Under the pieces are notes generated by a model that saw only the letters and a program-made list of their open reading frames with translations, had not been told where the DNA came from and did no database searches. Shown piece after piece: positions 51,846-61,998 of a DNA stretch of 64,000 nt; within the stretch, counting starts at the first letter, position 1; every line of letters begins with the position of its first letter. Position numbers and translations under genes: made by a program. The stretch lies in NCBI RefSeq assembly GCF_988243305.1, contig NZ_OZ547136.1; one strand, given 5' to 3'.

Positions 51846-53324
51846 ATGTCGAAAAAATACATCATAGGGATTGATGGCGGAAGTCAGAGCACAAAAGTGG
51901 TGATGTATGATCTGGAAGGTAATGTGGTTTGCGAAGGCAAAGGCTTATTGCAGCCGATGCACACGCCAGATGCCGATACCGCAGAACATCCTGACGACGA
52001 TTTATGGGCATCATTATGTTTTGCCGGTCACGATTTGATGAGTCAGTTTGCCGGGAATAAAGAAGATATTGTCGGTATTGGTCTGGGATCCATCCGTTGC
52101 TGCCGTGCGTTATTGAAAGCCGATGGCACGCCAGCTGCGCCGTTGATTAGCTGGCAGGATGCACGCGTTACACGCCCTTACGAACATACGAATCCTGACG
52201 TGGCATATGTCACCTCTTTTTCAGGTTATCTGACGCATCGCTTAACCGGCGAGTTTAAAGACAATATCGCCAACTATTTTGGTCAGTGGCCGGTGGATTA
52301 TAAGACCTGGGCATGGAGTGAAGATGCCGCAGTCATGGAGAAGTTTAATATCCCCCGTCATATGCTGTTTGATGTGCAAATGCCGGGCACTGTTCTTGGG
52401 CATATCACTCCTCAAGCCGCGCTGGCGACACATTTCCCAGCTGGGCTGCCGGTTGTTTGTACCACCAGTGATAAACCGGTAGAAGCACTGGGAGCCGGGT
52501 TACTGGATGATGAAACTGCGGTAATTTCTCTTGGCACTTACATCGCGTTGATGATGAACGGCAAAGCACTGCCGAAAGATCCGGTGGCGTACTGGCCGAT
52601 TATGTCTTCTATTCCGCAAACATTGCTGTATGAAGGTTACGGTATTCGCAAAGGCATGTGGACGGTGAGCTGGCTACGCGACATGTTAGGCGAGTCGTTA
52701 ATTCAGGATGCCAAAGCACAGGATCTTTCACCGGAAGATTTGCTCAACAAAAAAGCGTCTTGTGTGCCGCCAGGCTGTAATGGTCTGATGACGGTGCTGG
52801 ACTGGCTGACCAATCCGTGGGAACCGTACAAACGCGGGATTATGATTGGCTTTGATTCCAGCATGGATTACGCATGGATATATCGTTCGATACTGGAAAG
52901 CGTGGCGCTGACGCTGAAGAACAATTACGACAATATGTGTAATGAAATGAATCACTTTGCAAAGCATGTGATCATTACTGGCGGCGGTTCGAACAGCGAT
53001 CTGTTTATGCAGATTTTTGCCGACGTGTTCAACCTTCCGGCACGCCGTAACGCCATTAATGGTTGTGCAAGCCTGGGGGCAGCGATTAATACGGCGGTAG
53101 GTCTGGGGCTATACCCGGATTACGCAACGGCTGTCGACAAAATGGTTCGCGTGAAAGATATCTTTATGCCTGTTGAGAACAATGCCAAACGCTACGACGC
53201 GATGAATAAAGGCATTTTCAAGGAGTTAACCAAACATACTGATGTAATCCTGAAAAAATCGTATGAAGTGATGCATGGGGAATTGGGGAATGCGGATTCG
53301 ATCCAGAGCTGGTCGAATGCGTAA
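51846..53324 (+). CDS. ygcE: FGGY-family carbohydrate kinase
   Basis: 492-aa ORF MSKKYIIGIDGGSQSTKVVMYDLEGNVVCEGKG... Confidence 0.85.
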   Translation: MSKKYIIGIDGGSQSTKVVMYDLEGNVVCEGKGLLQPMHTPDADTAEHPDDDLWASLCFAGHDLMSQFAGNKEDIVGIGLGSIRCCRALLKADGTPAAPLISWQDARVTRPYEHTNPDVAYVTSFSGYLTHRLTGEFKDNIANYFGQWPVDYKTWAWSEDAAVMEKFNIPRHMLFDVQMPGTVLGHITPQAALATHFPAGLPVVCTTSDKPVEALGAGLLDDETAVISLGTYIALMMNGKALPKDPVAYWPIMSSIPQTLLYEGYGIRKGMWTVSWLRDMLGESLIQDAKAQDLSPEDLLNKKASCVPPGCNGLMTVLDWLTNPWEPYKRGIMIGFDSSMDYAWIYRSILESVALTLKNNYDNMCNEMNHFAKHVIITGGGSNSDLFMQIFADVFNLPARRNAINGCASLGAAINTAVGLGLYPDYATAVDKMVRVKDIFMPVENNAKRYDAMNKGIFKELTKHTDVILKKSYEVMHGELGNADSIQSWSNA

Positions 53325-53370
53325 GTGAGGAAGGCCGGGCGGGAAACTGCCCGGCCTGAACATACCTGAA

Positions 53371-53508
53371 TGGTTATCCCCGCTGACGTGGGGAACATAA
53401 GTTCGACAACTTAAAAAATGATAACAAGTCCGGTTTATCCCCGCTGATGCAGGGAACATAATAAAAACTTTAACTAGTTCGGTTTATCCCTGTTGTTACA
53501 AGGAATAT
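53371..53508 (-). CRISPR. Degenerate CRISPR remnant (three decayed repeat-like units)
   Basis: TGGTTATCCCCGCTGACGTGGGGAACAT / CGGTTTATCCCCGCTGATGCAGGGAACAT / CGGTTTATCCCTGTTGTTACAAGGAATAT separated by 32-nt and about 20-nt spacers. Confidence 0.7.
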
Positions 53509-53962
53509 TAACTACACTCGATGTCCTTAGAATAAAAGACAACGCAAACCGTACTTTATCAATTTTCATTTAAAGTATGAACTGGATATCTTTATTCATA
53601 AGAACTATTCATCAACAGCCTATAGAGACGGTTATGTAAAACCACTCATTAGCCTCAAAACAAAGACAAATTTCCAGATTTATTACTTAATCAATGAATA
53701 ATAAGCTTAAAAAACAATCTATTATCCTAAAGAAAAAATTAACAAACATCAATTCAATATTAAAAAAATAATATATGATAATTTCTTAATGATTTAAGTA
53801 TCATACAACTAACACTTTAATTAAATTTGATTTTTTGTATCGATAATTGTGAACTTATCATATATGGAGAGCTATTTTGAACATGAGGTGTTACGTGGAT
53901 ATATTGCTTAATACGAGTACTGCTAATATAAAAACTTGAGAAAGAGATAACGGGTTATATGG

Positions 53963-54418
53963 TGGTTTATCCCCGCTGGCGCGGGGAACTCCGTCAGTGT
54001 GCCAGTTGCTACTGTTTCCCATACGGTTTATCCCCGCTGACGCGGGGAACTCATCAGTGATATCCAACATTGCGGAGCTAAACGCGGTTTATCCCCGCTG
54101 GCGCGGGGAACTCTATAAATGTGCCATATACGGCGTTTGTTGCCTCGGTTTATCCCCGCTGGCGCGGGGAACTCCTCCCGGTGATGCGGGTTATGTGGCC
54201 TGCCGCCGGTTTATCCCCGCTGGCGCGGGGAACTCTTCGCCGCGTCAACAATTCGGACCTGTAAATCCGGTTTATCCCCGCTGGCGCGGGGAACTCATCC
54301 GGCGAACGCGCTACAGAGTACAGTTCACCGGTTTATCCCCGCTGGCGCGGGGAACTCGGAAACCGCCCCGGCGGTGGTTAGCTGTTTGCCGGTTTATCCC
54401 CGCTGGCGCGGGGAACTC
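53963..54418 (-). CRISPR. Second type I-E CRISPR array: 8 repeats, 7 spacers
   Basis: Same 29-bp repeat at 61-bp period (53963, 54024, 54085, 54146, 54207, 54268, 54329, 54390); AT-rich leader-like sequence beginning TCTCTAAA at the high-coordinate end, as in array 1. Confidence 0.93.
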
Positions 54419-54750
54419 TCTAAACATAACCTATTATTAATTAATAATTTTTTAAGCCAGTCACAATCTACCAACTTTATAGTATCACACAAACAACACA
54501 TCCATTATGTTAAAGAGCACTTAATCCATTGATTGAAAAGCTAAATATTTAAAGTAATCCTATACCGACTAAAATCTACCAAACTTTACCGCAATAATTT
54601 TCACTCCAGCGAAAAATTAATGCCGCAGAATTTGTAGAGAATGCTAATGATTAGCCCTGGATGGGTAAAATGGAGGAGTTTTCAGAGGCGACAAACAATA
54701 TAAATGAGTAGAAATCTTTACAGGTTCCACCCATTTATAACGCTTATAAA
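54419..54750 (-). promoter_or_regulatory. Leader of the second CRISPR array
   Basis: AT-rich non-coding region adjoining the first repeat on the transcription-proximal side; starts with the same TCTCTAAA junction seen at the array-1 leader. Confidence 0.55.
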
Positions 54751-54757
54751 TGTTTAA

Positions 54758-55429
54758 TCAGGCAATATTTAGATATTTATGTGTTTGCATCGACAAACGC
54801 CAATTACGAGCAATGCAGGTTTCAATGCACAATCGTGTGGCATCATCCTTTTGGCTAATCGGCTGCAGTGCAATGACTCGCGGTTTATCATCGGTCAGCG
54901 TCGCCAAAAGTTCATCCAGTGCTTCAATATCACGTACGCGTCCCACTGGATGCTTGATTTCGTTGGCTCGCTCCAGTGCCTGTGACAACACTTCATAGCC
55001 GCCGCGCATGTTCAGCTTTGGCGATACGGTAACCCAGGTATTCGGTGTGCAGCGTACCTCATGAGTACCACTGGTTTCGATCTGGCAGCTAAAACCGTTC
55101 TTTTCGAGCAGGTCAGTCAGTGGCAGCAAATCATGAATGCAAGGCTCACCACCCGTAATCACCACATGCCGCGCGGTGTATCCCTGGCGACCAATGACAG
55201 CCAGCAAGTCTTCACTGCTCGCCGCCCCCCACTTATCACTCTCTTTGGTCTTCGCCAGAATGCTGAAAAGGGAGACTTCCCGATCCTCAAGCTTTTCCCA
55301 GGTGTGTTTGGTGTCGCACCAGGCACAGCCAACCGGGCATCCCTGTAAACGAATAAAAATGGCGGGGACGCCGGTAAAGTAACCCTCACCTTGCAGGGTC
55401 TGGAACATCTCGTTAATCGGGTACTGCAT
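54758..55429 (-). CDS. queE: 7-carboxy-7-deazaguanine synthase QueE (radical SAM)
   Basis: 223-aa ORF MQYPINEMFQTLQGEGYFTGVPAIFIRLQGCPVGCAWCDTKHTW... Confidence 0.93.
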   Translation of the reverse strand: MQYPINEMFQTLQGEGYFTGVPAIFIRLQGCPVGCAWCDTKHTWEKLEDREVSLFSILAKTKESDKWGAASSEDLLAVIGRQGYTARHVVITGGEPCIHDLLPLTDLLEKNGFSCQIETSGTHEVRCTPNTWVTVSPKLNMRGGYEVLSQALERANEIKHPVGRVRDIEALDELLATLTDDKPRVIALQPISQKDDATRLCIETCIARNWRLSMQTHKYLNIA

Positions 55430-55601
55430 AGCATTCTCTGTGAAGTGGATAATTGTTAATTATTGCAGATCCTGCCACAACAATCATGTCTTATTAACAT
55501 TCTGTTACAGGCAGTTTTAAGGCAAAAAGTGGATTAGATCATAAAGAATAAAATGAAGCAGAGTATTATGTTTTAAGGAATTAATTAAAAGGGATTTAAA
55601 C

Positions 55602-56204
55602 ATGCTCAGAATATTCATCGTAATTATATTTATTTTCAATTTATCAGGCTGTGGATATAACGATATTCAAACCTATGATGAGCAGGTTAACGCCTCCTGG
55701 TCTGAGGTATTGAATCAATATCAACGTCGCGCCGATCTTATTCCTAATCTTGTCGCCAGCATTAAAGGTTATTCCAGCCATGAACGAGATGTACTGGAAG
55801 CCGTAACATTGGCTCGTAGCCAGGCTAATCGCGCCAGTAGCGATCTTCAGCAAACTCCGGGCGATGAACAAAAATTACAAGCCTGGCAACAGGCTCAAGC
55901 GCAGGTGACTCGCACTCTCGGTCAGTTAACGATAATTAGTGAGCGTTACCCTGAGTTAAAATCTCAGGAACTCTATCAAAATTTAATGGTACAGCTTGAA
56001 GGAAGTGAAAATCGGATTGCCGTTGCGCGAGGAAGATATATTAAAGCCATTGAACAATATAATGTCACTATCCGCAAATTCCCCGCTGTGTTAACCGCAA
56101 AGGTCATGGATTACACACCAAAGAAAAATTATTTGCCGGATGATGTCGCCGCAGTAAGTAAAGCCCCAACAATAGATTTTAGCCAGAATGCTAATGCTCA
56201 TTAA
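55602..56204 (+). CDS. LemA-family lipoprotein
   Basis: 200-aa ORF with lipoprotein signal/lipobox (FNLSGCG) and a LemA-like helical body; AT-rich. Confidence 0.8.
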   Translation: MLRIFIVIIFIFNLSGCGYNDIQTYDEQVNASWSEVLNQYQRRADLIPNLVASIKGYSSHERDVLEAVTLARSQANRASSDLQQTPGDEQKLQAWQQAQAQVTRTLGQLTIISERYPELKSQELYQNLMVQLEGSENRIAVARGRYIKAIEQYNVTIRKFPAVLTAKVMDYTPKKNYLPDDVAAVSKAPTIDFSQNANAH

Positions 56205-56217
56205 GCGGGGAAGTTCT

Positions 56218-57111
56218 ATGCGAAATTTTATCTTCCTTATGGCTTTCTTCTGTTCATCTGTGTTTGCCACACAAATTCCAGTACCTGAATCACCCAAGTA
56301 TGTGAATGACTTAACCGGCACATTAACAAACAGCGAAGTAAACACCCTGACCAACCAGATTAAAGCCCTGACGCAAAAAAACTACGCACAGTTGGTCGTG
56401 TTAGTGGTTGAAACAACTGGCGATGAAACCATCGAGCAGTACGCAACGCGGGTATTCGATAGCTGGAAACCGGGTGATAAAGACCACGATGATGGCGTTC
56501 TACTGTTAGTCGCCTGGCAGGATCATACCGTGCGTATTGAAATCGGTTACGGACTGGAAGGTATTATTACGGATGCACAGTCCGGGAAAATTATTCGCAA
56601 CAGTATTATTCCGGCATTTAAAAAAGGGGACCTGGCTGGTGGTTTGCAAAAGGGAATCAGCGATATTGAAAGTCGTCTGACGGGGAATAATTTAGCAACG
56701 ATAACACCGACCGATCACCCTTTGCCTTTTAGCGGTTGGTGGGCTTTGTTAGTCTGGGCGATAGTACTGACGTTTATTTCTGCCAGAGGATATATCAAAA
56801 CGCTGGGAGTAATTTGCTTCGCAGCTATTGTACTGGCCTTTGTTTTACCTATAGCAGGCTTCAGCGGAAGCTGGGGAGTACTCGCAACATTACTCTGCTT
56901 CGCCACACCGTTCCTGGCTGTCGCCATCGCTTTTACCCCCTTCGGCAAAAAGGTTCGGGATTCGATGCGTGATGCCAACCAGCCATCACGCCATACAAGA
57001 AGCAATTCTTCCTCCCACTATTCATCATCGTCATCCTCTTCATTCAACAATGACAATTTCAGCGGTGGTGGCGGTTCATCTGGTGGCGGTGGCGCTTCCG
57101 GGCGCTGGTAA
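56218..57111 (+). CDS. TPM-domain (YgcG-like) membrane protein, paralog 1
   Basis: Signal peptide MRNFIFLMAFFCSSVFA, TPM-like block (VNDLTGTLT...LVVLVVETTGDETIEQYATRVFDSWKPGDKDHDDGVLLLVAWQDHTVRIEIGYGLEG), two or three TM helices, Gly/Ser-rich tail ending GGGGSSGGGGASGRW. Confidence 0.8.
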   Translation: MRNFIFLMAFFCSSVFATQIPVPESPKYVNDLTGTLTNSEVNTLTNQIKALTQKNYAQLVVLVVETTGDETIEQYATRVFDSWKPGDKDHDDGVLLLVAWQDHTVRIEIGYGLEGIITDAQSGKIIRNSIIPAFKKGDLAGGLQKGISDIESRLTGNNLATITPTDHPLPFSGWWALLVWAIVLTFISARGYIKTLGVICFAAIVLAFVLPIAGFSGSWGVLATLLCFATPFLAVAIAFTPFGKKVRDSMRDANQPSRHTRSNSSSHYSSSSSSSFNNDNFSGGGGSSGGGGASGRW

Positions 57112-57125
57112 CAAAAGGAATTGAT

Positions 57126-58274
57126 ATGCGTATTTTTCTCTTACTTCTGATGCTATGCGGTTTTCAGGTATTCGCTGAACAATTGCCTTCAGTAACTGAC
57201 TTAACCGGGACATTAACGACAGAAGAACAAACTGCTTTAACTCAACAATTACAGACTCTCGAGCAGCAAAACCACTTCCAGGTGGCCGTGTTGGTCACGC
57301 CGACCACAGGGGGCAAAAACATTAAACTTGCAGCCTCGCAGAGATACGGGGTATATCACTGGAAACCCGTTGGAGAGAAGCGATATGGCGAAGGTATCTT
57401 AATTCTCGTCGTATGGCCGGAAGGGCTGGCGTCAATGAAGATTGGACATGGACTGGAACAGATGTTGCCGCCGGAACAAGCTTCGCAAATTGTTCGTTAC
57501 CATATGCAGCCAGAATTCGAAAAAAACAATCTCTTTGCTGGATTAACGGGCGGAATTGAAAGCATCGCACAGTTTACCCATATCAAAGCGAACCTTAGCC
57601 CTTTGGATGCTTTAGCCAATCATCTGTTTGCTAATCCGCAACGTTCGCTGCCTTGTCTTGCCTGGACACTGCTGATGATCGTTGCCATCGTTGTCCTCTG
57701 GCGATTTGCCAGCCGCCCAGGGCGTGGCATATGGATGATATCGATGATTACCCCTATGGTCTGGTTTTTCTCCTTTCAGGACGATGTCATCATTCGGCGG
57801 GTATCGGTCGTTTGTTTTAGTTTATTGTTAGCAACAACCTGCAAGCAGCGTCTCGCGGTAGTTTTTAATATGTGCCGCGTATTTCCTATGATGCTGACCC
57901 CAAAAAATAAAAACGCTAAAGTGAAAAAACAAAAGAAGACTCCGCAGGTTCGTGAATCAGGACGAAATTCATTGTTTGTCGTGATGCTGATAATTATTGT
58001 GGGATGGTGCCTGGTGTTCGCCAGTAATAAAGATATTGCATTCATCTCAACAATTATTGGGTTAATTGATCATTTTATCGGCCCAATAACCATTGCTGGC
58101 ATCGTTCTGCTGATCATTGTGGCCAAATTTACTGGCAATCTTAAGCTGGGATCAGGAGAAAAAAGCAACAGGAAAACGGGGAATCGTAATGCTCATTCTC
58201 GCTCTTCGTCGAGAAATTCTTTCCGCGGTGGTGGCGGTTCTTCAGGAGGCGGCGGTTCATCCGGCCGTTGGTGA
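57126..58274 (+). CDS. TPM-domain membrane protein, paralog 2 (diverged, extended membrane region)
   Basis: Signal peptide MRIFLLLLMLCGFQVFA, diverged TPM block, extra TM segments and a lysine-rich loop, tail ending GGGGSSGGGGSSGRW. Confidence 0.75.
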   Translation: MRIFLLLLMLCGFQVFAEQLPSVTDLTGTLTTEEQTALTQQLQTLEQQNHFQVAVLVTPTTGGKNIKLAASQRYGVYHWKPVGEKRYGEGILILVVWPEGLASMKIGHGLEQMLPPEQASQIVRYHMQPEFEKNNLFAGLTGGIESIAQFTHIKANLSPLDALANHLFANPQRSLPCLAWTLLMIVAIVVLWRFASRPGRGIWMISMITPMVWFFSFQDDVIIRRVSVVCFSLLLATTCKQRLAVVFNMCRVFPMMLTPKNKNAKVKKQKKTPQVRESGRNSLFVVMLIIIVGWCLVFASNKDIAFISTIIGLIDHFIGPITIAGIVLLIIVAKFTGNLKLGSGEKSNRKTGNRNAHSRSSSRNSFRGGGGSSGGGGSSGRW

Positions 58275-58279
58275 TCGTA

Positions 58280-59185
58280 ATGCGCTTAATCTTTATTCTA
58301 CTTGCTTTGTGGAGCCTTCCCGGGCTTGCCCAGCAAATTGCTGTGCCGGAGCTGCGCCAACAAGTGACTGATATTACTGGTACGTTAAGCACGTCTGAAC
58401 AGCAATCGCTAACGCAGCAGCTGCAGGATATTACACATAAAACACGGGCGCAGGTCGCTGTATTAGTAGTGCCGTCCACCGGAGACGATTCCATTGAACA
58501 ATATGCAGCACGCGTTTTTGATAGCTGGAAACTGGGAGATAAGCAGAGAAACGATGGTATTTTACTTCTGGTTGCCTGGGAGGAGCATGCTGTTCGTATT
58601 GAGGTTGGCTACGGGCTGGAAGGGGTGGTTACCGACCTGCAAGCGGCGAAGATTATCAGAGATATTTTGATCCCTGCCTTCAAAAGTGATGACCTGATGG
58701 GTGGATTAACACTGGCAAGCGAAAATATCGGCGCGCTTCTGTTGAATGGTGAATTATCGGAAGACAGGGGGGATTATTACAGTATCAATCCCTTTATTCC
58801 ATTATCGCTTGCTGTAATTATATTGCTGGCGGTACTTTCATATTTTATTGTTTTTACCGATCCGTCGAATTTACCCTGGATCACTCTCACTGGCGCCATT
58901 TACGGGATGGTATTCCTCTATGTTGCCGAGCCAGGACCATGGACCAATTTAATCGTTGCCTGCGGTATGCTCACGCCTTTTGCCATCGTACCACTGCTTA
59001 TTTTTTGGCTTATCGTTAATAAAAAGCTACGCGCTAAATACAAGAAGCTCGGTAAAGAAAGAGCTTCAAGAAAAGGTTCTTCTTCATCCTCTTCCGGTGG
59101 CGGCTCAAGTGGCGGAGGCTCAGGCGGTGGCTTTAGCGGCGGGGGCGGTTCTTCTGGCGGTGGCGGCGCGTCCGGTCGCTGGTAA
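58280..59185 (+). CDS. ygcG: TPM-domain membrane protein, paralog 3 (most likely the ygcG ortholog by position next to eno)
   Basis: Signal peptide MRLIFILLALWSLPGLA, TPM block highly similar to paralog 1, TM helices, long Ser/Gly tail ending GGGGSSGGGGASGRW; symbol tentative. Confidence 0.7.
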   Translation: MRLIFILLALWSLPGLAQQIAVPELRQQVTDITGTLSTSEQQSLTQQLQDITHKTRAQVAVLVVPSTGDDSIEQYAARVFDSWKLGDKQRNDGILLLVAWEEHAVRIEVGYGLEGVVTDLQAAKIIRDILIPAFKSDDLMGGLTLASENIGALLLNGELSEDRGDYYSINPFIPLSLAVIILLAVLSYFIVFTDPSNLPWITLTGAIYGMVFLYVAEPGPWTNLIVACGMLTPFAIVPLLIFWLIVNKKLRAKYKKLGKERASRKGSSSSSSGGGSSGGGSGGGFSGGGGSSGGGGASGRW

Positions 59186-59217
59186 CTCAACCATAAAAAA
59201 TGCCAGCCCGAAGGCTG

Positions 59218-60643
59218 TAATGCCGATCAGTTAAGGATCAGTTGACCGATCCAGTGGCTGTGTAAGAATCCGGAAACGCTCACTTGTTTCCGGATTTTTT
59301 TATGCACATTGGACAGGCTCTTGATCTGGTATCCCGTTACGATTCTCTGCGTAACCCACTGACTTCTCTGGGGGATTACCTCGACCCCGAACTCATCTCT
59401 CGTTGCCTTGCCGAATCAGGTACTGTAACGCTACGCAAGCGCCGTCTTCCCCTCGAAATGATGGTCTGGTGTATTGTTGGCATGGCGCTTGAGCGTAAAG
59501 AACCTCTTCACCAGATTGTGAATCGCCTGGACATCATGCTGCCGGGCAATCGCCCCTTCGTTGCCCCCAGTGCCGTTATTCAGGCCCGCCAGCGCCTGGG
59601 AAGTGAGGCTGTCCGCCGCGTGTTCACGAAAACAGCGCAGCTCTGGCATAACGCCACGCCGCATCCGCACTGGTGCGGCCTGACCCTGCTGGCCATCGAT
59701 GGTGTGTTCTGGCGCACACCGGATACACCAGAGAACGATGCAGCCTTCCCCCGCCAGACACATGCCGGGAACCCGGCGCTCTACCCGCAGGTCAAAATGG
59801 TCTGCCAGATGGAACTGACCAGCCATCTGCTGACGGCTGCAGCCTTCGGCACGATGAAGAACAGCGAAAATGAGCTTGCTGAGCAACTTATAGAACAAAC
59901 CGGCGATAACACTCTGACGTTAATGGATAAAGGTTATTACTCACTGGGACTGTTAAATGCCTGGAGCCTGGCGGGAGAACACCGCCACTGGATGATACCT
60001 CTCAGAAAGGGAGCGCAATATGAAGAGATCAGAAAACTGGGTAAAGGCGATCATCTGGTGAAGCTGAAAACCAGCCCGCAGGCACGAAAAAAGTGGCCGG
60101 GACTGGGAAATGAAGTGACAGCCCGCCTGCTGACCGTGACGCGCAAAGGAAAAGTCTGCCATCTGCTGACGTCGATGACGGACGCCATGCGCTTCCCCGG
60201 AGGAGAAATGGCGGATCTGTACAGTCATCGCTGGGAAATCGAACTGGGATACAGGGAGATAAAACAGACGATGCAACTGAGCAGGCTGACGCTGAGAAGT
60301 AAAAAACCGGAGCTTGTGGAGCAAGAGCTGTGGGGTGTCTTACTGGCTTATAATCTGGTGAGATATCAGATGATTAAAATGGCGGAACATCTGAAAGGTT
60401 ACTGGCCGAATCAACTGAGTTTCTCAGAATCATGTGGAATGGTGATGAGAATGCTGATGACATTGCAGGGCGCTTCACCGGGACGTATACCGGAGCTGAT
60501 GCGCGATCTTGCAAGTATGGGACAACTTGTGAAATTACCGACAAGAAGGGAAAGGGCCTTCCCGAGAGTGGTAAAGGAGAGGCCCTGGAAATACCCCACA
60601 GCCCCGAAAAAGAGCCAGTCAGTTGCTTAACTGACTGGCATTA
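59218..60643 (+). mobile_element. IS4 insertion sequence (1426 bp) with imperfect terminal inverted repeats and a flanking direct repeat
   Basis: Left end TAATGCCGATCAGTTAAGGATCAG, right end reverse complement TAATGCCAGTCAGTTAAGCAACTG; CAGCCCGAAGGCTG present immediately outside both ends (59204-59217 and 60644-60657); length equals the canonical IS4 length. Confidence 0.9.
59302..60630 (+). CDS. insG: IS4 transposase
   Basis: 442 aa from [40 protein letters not shown]..., recognised as the IS4 transposase. Confidence 0.9.
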
Positions 60644-60684
60644 CAGCCCGAAGGCTGGCATTTTTAAATCAGATAAAGTCAGAC

Positions 60685-61998
<1,314 letters not shown>

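Follow-up and report, generated by a model that had tools for sequence, protein, structure and literature searches.

Between queE and eno in Escherichia coli: a long-resident lemA–TPM operon and its possible role at the membrane

What do four closely spaced genes between queE and eno do, and how did they come to be there? They are open reading frames (ORFs) on the plus strand at 55602-59185 of the window, the whole 64,000-nucleotide stretch of Escherichia coli DNA analysed here, and correspond to lemA, TPM1, TPM2 and TPM3. A first-pass annotation had read them as a module that is probably expanded relative to K-12, consistent with horizontal acquisition, and as the best local candidate for an undescribed system. 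The best explanation as a whole, which we hold with slightly better than even confidence, is a vertically inherited LemA/TPM operon acting as a non-enzymatic membrane-complex factor.

The module is flanked upstream by queE (54758-55429, minus strand) and downstream by eno (60685-61983, minus strand). The divergent queE–lemA intergenic region (55430..55601) is presumed to hold the promoter and regulatory sites of the operon. lemA (55602..56204) encodes a LemA-family lipoprotein of 200 residues. It is followed by TPM1 (56218..57111; 297 residues from the PGAP start, in an ORF opening at 56188), by TPM2 (57126..58274; a divergent paralog of 382 residues) and by TPM3 (58280..59185; 301 residues from the ATG at 58280, the PGAP start at 58271 overlapping the TPM2 stop). 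The intergenic gaps are 13, 14 and about 5 nt, which bears out the tight same-strand packing described at first pass, and no intrinsic-terminator-like site above shuffle expectation occurs between the four genes. On an identical sequence (strain FDAARGOS_1288) RefSeq lists a 'LemA family protein' and three 'TPM domain-containing protein' entries. It is well supported that the block is a real, intact operon for a LemA lipoprotein and three related inner-membrane TPM proteins. A CRISPR array lies near the module.

The domain assignments proposed for these proteins hold. The TPM family PF04536 matches all five sequences searched (TPM1-3, K-12 YgcG and the allele of strain C2) at E <= 0.001, the best value being that of TPM1 (3.5e-40). 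Each TPM protein has the architecture described earlier, namely a predicted signal peptide, a TPM domain, hydrophobic helices and a Gly/Ser tail. Along their whole length TPM1 and TPM3 share 42% identity, and they have three hydrophobic segments each, whereas TPM2 has five to six and is 36-40% identical to the other paralogs, the alignment being confined to the TPM block and the tail; the early view of paralog 2 as the diverged member with an enlarged membrane region is confirmed. Ten residues are near-invariant in the domain (D31, Q58, D92, A99, R106, E114, D119, P132, F134 and G142, TPM1 numbering). Since essentially all of them are kept in TPM1 and TPM3, these two can be regarded as canonical, whereas TPM2 is degenerate because 9 of the 36 positions conserved at 85% or more in 55 TPM proteins are substituted or deleted in it. 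The changes include D92E, A99V, R106S and D119P, and D92 and D119 are Asp at positions that are 100% invariant.

The AF2 model of TPM1 reaches pLDDT 90-97 over the TPM domain, with strands at 29-31, 58-64, 93-99 and 104-110. The predicted fold of TPM1 is a four-stranded sheet flanked by helices that can be superposed on solved TPM domains. The closest of these are BA41/BA42 of Bizionia argentinensis, PG0361 and Rhom172_1776 (PDB 5ANP, 4OA3, 2KW7, 7TBR). 5ANP and 7TBR are 34% identical to TPM1 with a target-normalised TM of 0.88-0.90 (in Foldseek, 0.89 for BA41 5ANP and 0.88 for 7TBR), but the four structures are of isolated domains, devoid of membrane part, tail and LemA, and the nucleotidase activity that has been reported is disputed. 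Other Foldseek neighbours are Psb32 (8C7I) and a subunit of a mycobacterial supercomplex (6ADQ_J).

This likeness raises the question of whether the TPM domains hydrolyse a phospho-compound in the periplasm as metal-dependent phosphatases or nucleotidases, with LemA as an accessory or regulatory partner. Work cited in PMC11237479 reported ATPase/ADPase activity for BA41 and acid phosphatase activity for TLP18.3. Metal sites are present in three TPM crystal structures, and the acidic residues D31, D92, E114 and D119 vary little or not at all across 55 homologs. Nevertheless, the solved structures have no consensus active site, and two comparative analyses dispute the phosphatase claim and hold catalysis to be unlikely (PMC11237479, PMC12419801). 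In addition, TPM2 lacks D92 and D119 and is still under purifying selection, and its relative in Klebsiella spallanzanii keeps just the membrane part and the tail. ATP is not known as a periplasmic substrate. An enzymatic role is unlikely on this evidence.

The C-terminal end of the TPM proteins is constant. The tails of all three paralogs end in F[SR]GGGGSSGGGG[AS]SGRW, and in 55 homologs ranging from Leptospira to E. coli the C-terminal GGGGxxGGGGASGxW does not vary; 41 of these 55 have three hydrophobic segments. TPM1-3 carry the YgcG-type combination of predicted signal peptide, TPM domain, about three transmembrane helices and this motif. In TPM1 a Ser-rich linker separates the helices from the invariant tail FSGGGGSSGGGGASGRW; TPM2 has a Lys-rich loop and an enlarged membrane region before the same tail, and TPM3 a Lys/Arg-rich segment. 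The hydrophobic segments of TPM1 show a positive-inside charge pattern, from which we infer that the basic Ser/Gly-rich linker and the tail are probably cytoplasmic. In the AF2 model of TPM1, the last nine residues form an ordered strand that probably packs against the periplasmic sheet of the TPM domain; this placement of the tail end conflicts with the cytoplasmic one suggested by charge.

The partner protein is a full-length member of its family: LemA matches Pfam PF04011 with an i-E of 5.6e-48 (residues 32-193, model 1-149 of 149) and the Thermotoga maritima LemA structure PDB 2ETD with a phmmer value of 7.7e-32. A lipobox (LSGC, Cys17) provides the N-terminal membrane anchor, and a predicted all-helical periplasmic domain (AF2 pLDDT 79.6) resembling 2ETD follows it. 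Residues G16, C17, Y19 and N20 are unchanged across 17 proteobacterial orthologs. T. maritima LemA, Listeria LemA and the magnetosome protein MamQ belong to the same Pfam family and share the N-terminal anchor and the helical bundle; the anchor is a transmembrane helix in that comparison group and a lipoprotein signal in the present LemA. By analogy with MamQ, LemA might shape membranes or act as a scaffold, with the TPM proteins as its anchors or regulators; the formation of vesicles and the local remodelling of the membrane under stress would be examples of such a role. LemA scores 89.9 bits against the MamQ equivalog NCBIfam NF040966, below the 250-bit cutoff; as judged from sequence, it is a relative within the family, and equivalog status is excluded by score. 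A membrane-shaping role is unlikely. In streptococci lemA adjoins htpX rather than TPM genes (SPD_1138 and SPD_1139, adjacent and co-regulated).

The reading that we prefer is that of a factor for membrane complexes. TPM domains have been viewed as assembly factors (PMC11237479, PMC12419801). Because a literature search found no experiment on any LemA-TPM pair, nor a paper on the function of the pair, the mechanism proposed here is built from analogy and context. The analogies come from Psb32/TLP18.3 in photosystem II assembly and repair, Campylobacter jejuni CcoZ in the cbb3 oxidase and the TPM subunit of the mycobacterial CIII2CIV2 supercomplex. As in the present proteins, C-terminal transmembrane helices hold the TPM fold of these three on the periplasmic or lumenal side of an energy-transducing membrane. 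However, the identity is only about 14%, and these relatives have a single transmembrane helix and neither the Gly-rich tail with its terminal W nor a LemA partner. Against the Psb32 equivalog NCBIfam NF047379 (cutoff 160 bits), TPM1 scores 33.7 and TPM3 31.2, and TPM2 gives no match.

In the proposed mechanism, the TPM domains would meet the helical LemA domain in the periplasm and form with it a membrane-attached hetero-oligomeric complex. Without acting as an enzyme, the LemA–TPM complex may help to assemble, repair or stabilise either the membrane itself or complexes embedded in it, and the conserved cytoplasmic tail could give an oligomerisation or cytoplasmic-face docking site. A stress-induced, non-enzymatic factor that assembles or maintains membrane complexes is, by this analogy, the most likely role, though at low confidence. 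The neighbourhood points to no client complex, queE and eno being unrelated housekeeping genes.

Transcription of the operon would start in the queE–lemA intergenic region. In K-12 the counterpart of this region is a binding site for the sigma-S form of RNA polymerase, with peaks in both ChIP-seq and SELEX (PMC4447067, PMC5493296), and for PhoP, which in its phosphorylated form binds the 300 bp upstream of queE (PMC4974570). These data are from K-12, whose sequence diverges from that of the present strain beyond about 90 nt; the first ~90 nt beside queE are identical in the four-gene, the lemA plus one TPM and the K-12 haplotypes. A consensus scan of the intergenic region found no strong sigma-70 promoter. 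Stress responses have also been recorded for related genes. A lemA and a TPM gene are co-induced under stress in an sppA mutant of Flavobacterium columnare, ECs_3635 (TPM1) rises about 2.4-fold in strain Sakai under TiO2 stress, and RefSeq names YqcG a 'cell envelope stress response protein'.

The origin of the operon can be followed with more certainty than its function. The queE–eno site holds lemA with one TPM gene in Klebsiella quasipneumoniae, lemA with a TPM gene and a TPM2-like gene in K. spallanzanii, lemA with three TPM genes in E. albertii, and lemA with TPM1 and TPM3 in E. marmotae. In the tree, the TPM paralogs of Enterobacteriaceae all group in a single clade (bootstrap 100). The K. 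spallanzanii TPM falls within the TPM1 clade (99) and that of K. quasipneumoniae within the TPM3 clade (87), a branching that places the TPM1 and TPM3 lineages before the Klebsiella/Escherichia split. Full-length orthologs of TPM2 occur in Escherichia only (77-87% identity in E. albertii), and the K. spallanzanii relative has the membrane region and the tail but no TPM domain. It is well supported that the paralogs are old duplications within Enterobacteriaceae and that the operon was vertically inherited and has long resided at this site.

Beyond the family, 61 usable proteobacterial lemA loci were surveyed. In the usual arrangement a tailed TPM gene follows lemA (48/61), and exactly one tailed TPM gene lies directly after lemA in 45. 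The norm is lemA with one tailed and one short TPM gene (37/61), and eight loci have lemA and one tailed TPM gene. The genes of this cluster (COG1704, COG1512 and COG3762) agree with the present module in the first two genes, their order and their spacing; they likewise encode a LemA lipoprotein and then a protein with signal peptide, TPM domain, three transmembrane helices and a Gly-rich tail ending in GGGGASGxW. Conversely, the present module lacks the short TPM gene (~165 residues) and has three long tailed TPM genes, a number confined to Escherichia in the survey, among them the Escherichia-specific TPM2 with its degenerate domain and enlarged membrane region. It is well supported that the module is an Escherichia/Klebsiella-specific expansion of this widespread cluster. 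The recurrence of LemA-TPM pairs had been rightly noted at first pass, and the term 'undescribed system' was an overstatement: PGAP names all four genes, and the module is a lineage-specific variant of an already known cluster.

Copy number could suggest that the extra paralogs are redundant, have no function of their own and are heading for loss, a single TPM gene being all that counts, as in K-12 and Klebsiella. Indeed, the number of TPM genes varies from one in K. quasipneumoniae through two in E. marmotae to three in E. coli and E. albertii, the TPM domain of TPM2 is degenerate, and in O157:H7 the lemA start is lost (ATG>ACG) and TPM1 is truncated. This view has little probability. Purifying selection acts on all four genes (dN/dS 0.03-0.25), with values of 0.03-0.08 for lemA, 0.11-0.16 for TPM1, 0.25 for TPM2 and 0.14-0.17 for TPM3, those of the TPM genes being measured over an E. 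coli–E. albertii dS of 0.4-0.5. The lineages of TPM1 and TPM3 are both of the age given above, and of six four-gene genomes checked, four have every ORF of the module intact.

Within the species, the interval is polymorphic at a fixed site. Among 5,426 complete E. coli genomes, the comparison called for at first pass finds the four-gene form in 1,101 (about a fifth), lemA with one TPM gene and a 120-residue ORF in 340, and the K-12 form, yqcG and ygcG, in 3,924. The single K-12 gene named earlier, ygcG, is indeed there, together with the 46-codon yqcG. It shares with the present module the chromosomal site, the upstream regulatory DNA, the protein architecture and the tail, but has no LemA beside it. 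YgcG is 37-41% identical to TPM1 and TPM3 (41% to TPM3) and forms a separate deep branch in the tree. A 207-nt local alignment links K-12 and the module from the queE boundary to about lemA codon 12, and a 1-nt indel restores the lemA frame. As read from this alignment, a remnant of lemA, its first ~12 codons, makes up the 5' half of yqcG, and the K-12 state is derived, lemA having been lost and one deeply divergent TPM gene kept. With lemA absent from 72% of E. coli and the O157:H7 lesions, the module is dispensable.

That the module is an accessory island which arrived by horizontal transfer together with IS4, perhaps as a system for defence or conflict, is very improbable: its presence in only about 20% of complete genomes, its GC content (46.6% against 50.5% for the window), the adjacent IS4 and nearby CRISPR array and the deep allelic divergence (two E. 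coli haplotypes differ by a dS of 0.96 in TPM1, compared with 0.05-0.07 in queE and eno) are outweighed by the same locus and gene order in Klebsiella, E. albertii and E. marmotae, the monophyly of the TPM proteins, the lemA relic in K-12, a K-12 allele that is more AT-rich still (38.5% GC), and PADLOC-DB 2.0, in which no family matches any of the four proteins at E <= 0.1. The island is largely refuted. Of the signs first taken for acquisition, the AT-richness is only mild, and the adjacency of IS4 is a fact of position, which is no sign of acquisition.

IS4 itself lies outside the module and is a strain-specific insertion unrelated to it. The copy (59218..60643, plus strand, 1,426 bp) has terminal inverted repeats TAATGCCGATCAGTTAAG / CTTAACTGACTGGCATTA and encodes at 59284-60630 (plus strand) what RefSeq calls an 'IS4-like element IS4 family transposase'. 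The five other four-gene genomes examined (three non-O157, two O157:H7) lack the element at this site, and among the matches listed in the E. coli search the sole plasmid match, H30, extends over no more than the IS4 end of the query. IS4 is flanked by its own 14-bp target-site duplication, the left copy of which, CAGCCCGAAGGCTG, lies at 59204..59217 (direct repeat D1 and inverted repeat I1). The insertion fell inside a terminator hairpin, and the duplicated 14 bp are the stem-loop of a bidirectional terminator common to TPM3/ygcG and eno. The intact hairpin with its T-run is found in the K-12-type locus and at 60641-60665 here.

The module consists of four genes on the + strand, lemA (55602-56204), TPM1 (56188/56218-57111), TPM2 (57126-58274) and TPM3 (58268/58280-59185). 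Successive ORFs are spaced by 13, 14 and ~5 nt, and no terminator-like site above shuffle expectation was found between them. The E. coli strain FDAARGOS_1288 is 100% identical to the window, and its RefSeq gene order is queE (-), LemA family protein, three TPM domain-containing proteins, IS4 transposase and eno (-). LemA covers the entire Pfam model PF04011 (5.6e-48), and each of the three paralogs matches the TPM model PF04536 (best 3.5e-40). The LemA lipobox, LSGC with Cys17, is invariant among 17 proteobacterial orthologs, and the Gly at +2 would place the lipoprotein in the outer membrane according to the +2 rule. TPM1, TPM2 and TPM3 follow a common plan from the N- to the C-terminus: a putative signal peptide (MRxF... 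with an AxA-like site), the TPM domain, hydrophobic helices, a basic Ser/Gly-rich stretch and a tail with the shared ending F[SR]GGGGSSGGGG[AS]SGRW. The overall identity of TPM1 and TPM3 is 42%, whereas TPM2 aligns with its paralogs in the TPM block (36-40%) and the tail only and has 5-6 hydrophobic segments versus 3 in the other two. Since ORFs, Pfam matches, shared plan, identities and segment counts all agree, the description in the first-pass annotation, a LemA lipoprotein followed by three TPM paralogs of which the second is diverged and has an enlarged membrane region, is accurate.

Rather than a new kind of system, the module is the Escherichia-lineage form of a gene cluster that is widespread and already annotated. 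Both families, LemA and TPM, are very widespread in bacteria, and neither has a settled molecular function; at least 8,000 LemA candidates are found at E <= 1e-10, and Foldseek returns more than 2,000 AFDB50 matches for a TPM protein. A pattern scan based on the LemA alignment yielded 80 loci, mainly from beta- and gamma-proteobacteria together with Bradyrhizobium and a Leptospira, 61 of which could be scored by their downstream sequence. In 37 of the 61, lemA is accompanied by one tailed long TPM gene and one short (~165 aa) TPM gene, and in 8 by one tailed TPM gene alone. The usual proteobacterial cluster thus carries one tailed TPM gene, often with a short one, whereas three long TPM genes occur, among the scorable loci, at the Escherichia locus only. 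The module had been regarded as uncharacterised; this holds, as the literature searched contains incidental mentions of the LemA-TPM pair and no functional study.

Within E. coli, the queE-eno interval exists in three forms. Megablast of each form over 5,426 complete genomes, with a query coverage of at least 80%, found the K-12-type yqcG + ygcG block in 3,924, the four-gene block in 1,101 and the C2 type, lemA with one TPM gene and a 120-aa hypothetical membrane protein, in 340; the three types combined account for 5,365 of the 5,426. The proposed expansion of the module relative to K-12 is therefore confirmed, and the four-gene form, present in about one fifth of the genomes, is not that of most strains. 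In the C2 haplotype, the gene for the 120-aa protein (L002:6730-7092, in the C2 locus) occupies the place of TPM2 and TPM3 and has its own terminator ahead of eno; no relation of its product to TPM is detectable.

All ORFs are intact in four of six four-gene genomes inspected (FDAARGOS_1288, PAR, EC42405 and O170:H18). In the two O157:H7 strains, Sakai (L094:5485-6817) and E32511 (L095:455-1763), lemA has ACG in place of its ATG start codon; the gene is annotated as a pseudogene in the Sakai record, and PGAP takes an ATT start. TPM1 of both strains is truncated at residue 234 from the ORF start (~residue 224 of the 297-aa protein), past the second hydrophobic helix, so that the tail is missing; TPM2 and TPM3 are still intact. 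PGAP also labels TPM1 as incomplete, with a missing C-terminus, in C2, EC42405 and O170:H18 (L002:5789-6694, L097:1089-1997 and L098:1089-1982). This reading is rejected because these ORFs are full length with a normal tail end, and the flags are probably annotation artefacts of the low-complexity C-terminal half.

The K-12 allele retains a trace of lemA. The ~90 nt proximal to queE are identical in K-12-type genomes and the window, and homology of ~85% extends over 207 nt, from the queE boundary to about codon 12 of lemA, where it vanishes; the alignment places K-12-type yqcG (L003:5139-5279) against window 55430-55640. In the K-12 type, the lemA signal-peptide codons are read from an upstream ATG owing to a 1-nt deletion, and the window counterpart of this ATG (55568) meets a stop two codons later. 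Because the homology reaches into lemA and the deletion joins the frames, the first half of yqcG (46 codons, 46 aa), which lacks the lipobox Cys, is what is left of the 5′ end of lemA. YqcG, a small protein of K-12, can accordingly be reinterpreted as an ORF built upon a lemA 5′ remnant. A simple internal deletion of the four-gene allele does not explain the K-12 form. The tail-coding sequence and terminator are common to the 3′ ends of all haplotypes. In a test for a deletion junction, only the 5′ homology proved real: local alignment of the lemA-3′/TPM1-5′ junction with the K-12 yqcG-3′/ygcG-5′ junction scores 18, inside the range of shuffles (mean 16.3, maximum 25). In RefSeq, YqcG is named "cell envelope stress response protein", which, given its construction upon the lemA 5′ remnant, suggests that the operon promoter is the stress-responsive element.

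The same site is occupied by related genes in other species: lemA with one 296-aa TPM gene in K. quasipneumoniae, lemA with three TPM genes in E. albertii, lemA with TPM1 and TPM3 in E. marmotae, and lemA with a TPM gene and a TPM2-like gene in K. spallanzanii, where a type I-E-like CRISPR array (L093:6850-8130) is inserted between the TPM2-like gene and eno. In a neighbour-joining tree, the Enterobacteriaceae TPM proteins form a single clade (bootstrap 100), in which TPM2 and K-12 YgcG each have a deep branch of their own. The K. spallanzanii TPM falls within the TPM1 clade (99) and that of K. quasipneumoniae within the TPM3 clade (87), which indicates that the duplications are older than the Klebsiella/Escherichia split and that present diversity reflects differential loss. 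Full-length TPM2 orthologs are restricted to Escherichia; the K. spallanzanii relative (P0031; L093:6001-6858) has a signal peptide, a TPM2-type membrane region and a Gly-rich tail ending in W, without a TPM domain. In comparison with 55 homologs, TPM1 and TPM3 are canonical at conserved TPM positions, and TPM2 deviates at 9 of 36 positions conserved at >=85%, with D92E and D119P affecting aspartates that are 100% invariant.

Where intact, each of the four genes is preserved by selection. Nei-Gojobori dN/dS values against E. albertii, E. marmotae and Klebsiella are 0.03-0.08 for lemA, 0.11-0.16 for TPM1, 0.25 for TPM2 and 0.14-0.25 for TPM3. Between the window and strain C2 (L002), dS is 0.18 in lemA and 0.96 in TPM1, as compared to 0.05-0.07 in the flanking queE and eno; in TPM1 it is even larger than the distance between E. 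coli and E. albertii (0.41). This points to alleles that are very old or were imported via recombination.

The module is not an acquired island. Horizontal acquisition had been proposed on the grounds of AT-richness and the adjoining IS4, and neither sign supports it; lemA-TPM genes are present between queE and eno in Klebsiella, E. albertii and E. marmotae, and yqcG contains the lemA relic. GC content is 46.6% in the module, 42.2% in the C2 allele and 38.5% in the K-12 allele, as compared to 50.5% in the window; being low in every haplotype, it is a property of the locus rather than a mark of the four-gene allele. The IS4 (59218-60643, 1,426 bp) lies inside the stem of the bidirectional TPM3/ygcG-eno terminator, has its own 14-bp target duplication, CAGCCCGAAGGCTG (59204-59217 and 60644-60657), which is the terminator stem, and is absent at this site from the other module carriers examined. 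TPM3 has lost the T-run 3′ of the hairpin that is present in K-12-type loci, and eno retains an intact hairpin and T-run (60641-60665). Among the matches listed for the E. coli collection, the sole plasmid match (H30) covers the IS4 end of the query only.

From Leptospira to E. coli, no part of the TPM proteins is more conserved than the tail, which is also kept by the relative devoid of a TPM domain; its motif, GGGGxxGGGGASGxW-COOH, varies little or not at all in 55 of 55 homologs. Three hydrophobic segments are found in 41 of these 55, and the charge order is acidic linker, TM1, positive loop, TM2, short neutral loop, TM3 and positive tail; by this pattern and the positive-inside rule, the tail is predicted to be cytoplasmic. 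The AF2 model of TPM1 comprises a TPM domain (pLDDT 90-97), 3-4 helices and a disordered linker of 28 residues (256-283), past which GGGGASGRW (residues 288-296, window ~57079-57105) forms an ordered beta-strand (pLDDT ~84). The model implies that this strand may be docked on the TPM sheet; since the TPM strands are its sole possible pairing partners, the prediction conflicts with the cytoplasmic tail expected from the charges. The TPM1 domain superimposes on BA41 (5ANP) with a TM of 0.89 normalised to the target, and remoter Foldseek matches are 7TBR, PG0361, TLP18.3, Psb32 and the TPM subunit of the mycobacterial III2-IV2 supercomplex. Against AFDB50, the TPM1 model matches thousands of full-length members with a TM of ~0.53 normalised to the query and a large rmsd; how domain, helices and tail are arranged relative to one another is irreproducible, and Foldseek cannot settle the tail docking site.

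As regards function, a known defence system is rejected, as a PADLOC scan of the four proteins gave no matches. NCBIfam gave sub-threshold matches to MamQ and Psb32 only. In PHROGs, LemA alone of the four matches, to phrog_1383, "virion structural protein" (E 5.4e-22), which means that some phages encode LemA-like proteins and is silent on function here. Several reports concern stress and membrane complexes. The homologous K-12 intergenic region is bound by sigma-S RNA polymerase in vivo and in vitro (PMC4447067, PMC5493296) and by phospho-PhoP (PMC4974570). It has been reported that lemA and a TPM gene are both upregulated in a Flavobacterium columnare sppA mutant under membrane stress, that ECs_3635 (TPM1) increases ~2.4-fold under TiO2 stress in O157:H7 Sakai, and that in pneumococcus lemA adjoins htpX and the expression of both changes together. 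It is argued in two comparative-genomic papers (PMC11237479, PMC12419801) that TPM domains aid the assembly of membrane-linked complexes rather than acting as phosphatases, and characterised relatives act on photosystem II, cbb3 oxidase and the III-IV supercomplex.

To the anatomy, evolution and selection of the module, which are observed directly, these regulatory, stress-induction and TPM-relative data taken together allow a conditional account to be added. In the model best supported by them, LemA and the TPM proteins are inferred to interact and to be regulated by stress in the window strain, forming a stress-induced complex on the periplasmic face whose activity would be to assemble, repair or stabilise membrane complexes. 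TPM2 would be a specialised membrane-embedded subunit, and the tail may serve as a cytoplasmic docking or oligomerisation element. An extended version, in which the tail is a previously unrecognised functional motif that reports the state of the periplasmic TPM/LemA complex across the inner membrane, and LemA, sitting in the outer membrane, and the TPM protein together form a trans-envelope stress sensor or scaffold, is considered unlikely; it draws on the exceptional conservation of the tail, its survival after loss of the TPM domain and its order in AF2. If true, E. coli with an intact operon would be the first tractable model of such a device.

The practical value of the module is a tractable entry to LemA/TPM function. 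K-12 lacks lemA, so that the standard model organism is uninformative on the pair. An intact lemA-TPM operon under purifying selection occurs at a defined site in about one fifth of E. coli strains, and natural variants with one, two or three TPM genes exist, as well as natural knock-outs such as O157:H7, so that routine genetic methods in E. coli can test directly what the pair does. Two further outcomes of the analysis are that yqcG originated as a lemA relic and that the C-terminal motif is strikingly conserved.

Rfam gave no match on 53000-61000 at the gathering threshold, and Tandem Repeats Finder detected none on 53300-59300. A type I-E-like CRISPR array with at least 8 repeats (GGTTTATCCCCGCTGGCGCGGGGAAC, 61-nt spacing) lies between ygcE and queE at 53964-54431, marked as CRISPR by RefSeq in the identical record, and a degenerate repeat is found at 53432-53472. 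In the strain matching the window, mazG is directly followed by relA (L001:14506-15871), and mazE/mazF are missing between them; mazEF is present at this position in K-12-type (L003:9476-11197) and C2-type genomes, and Klebsiella is without it. This difference is located at or past the right edge of the window.
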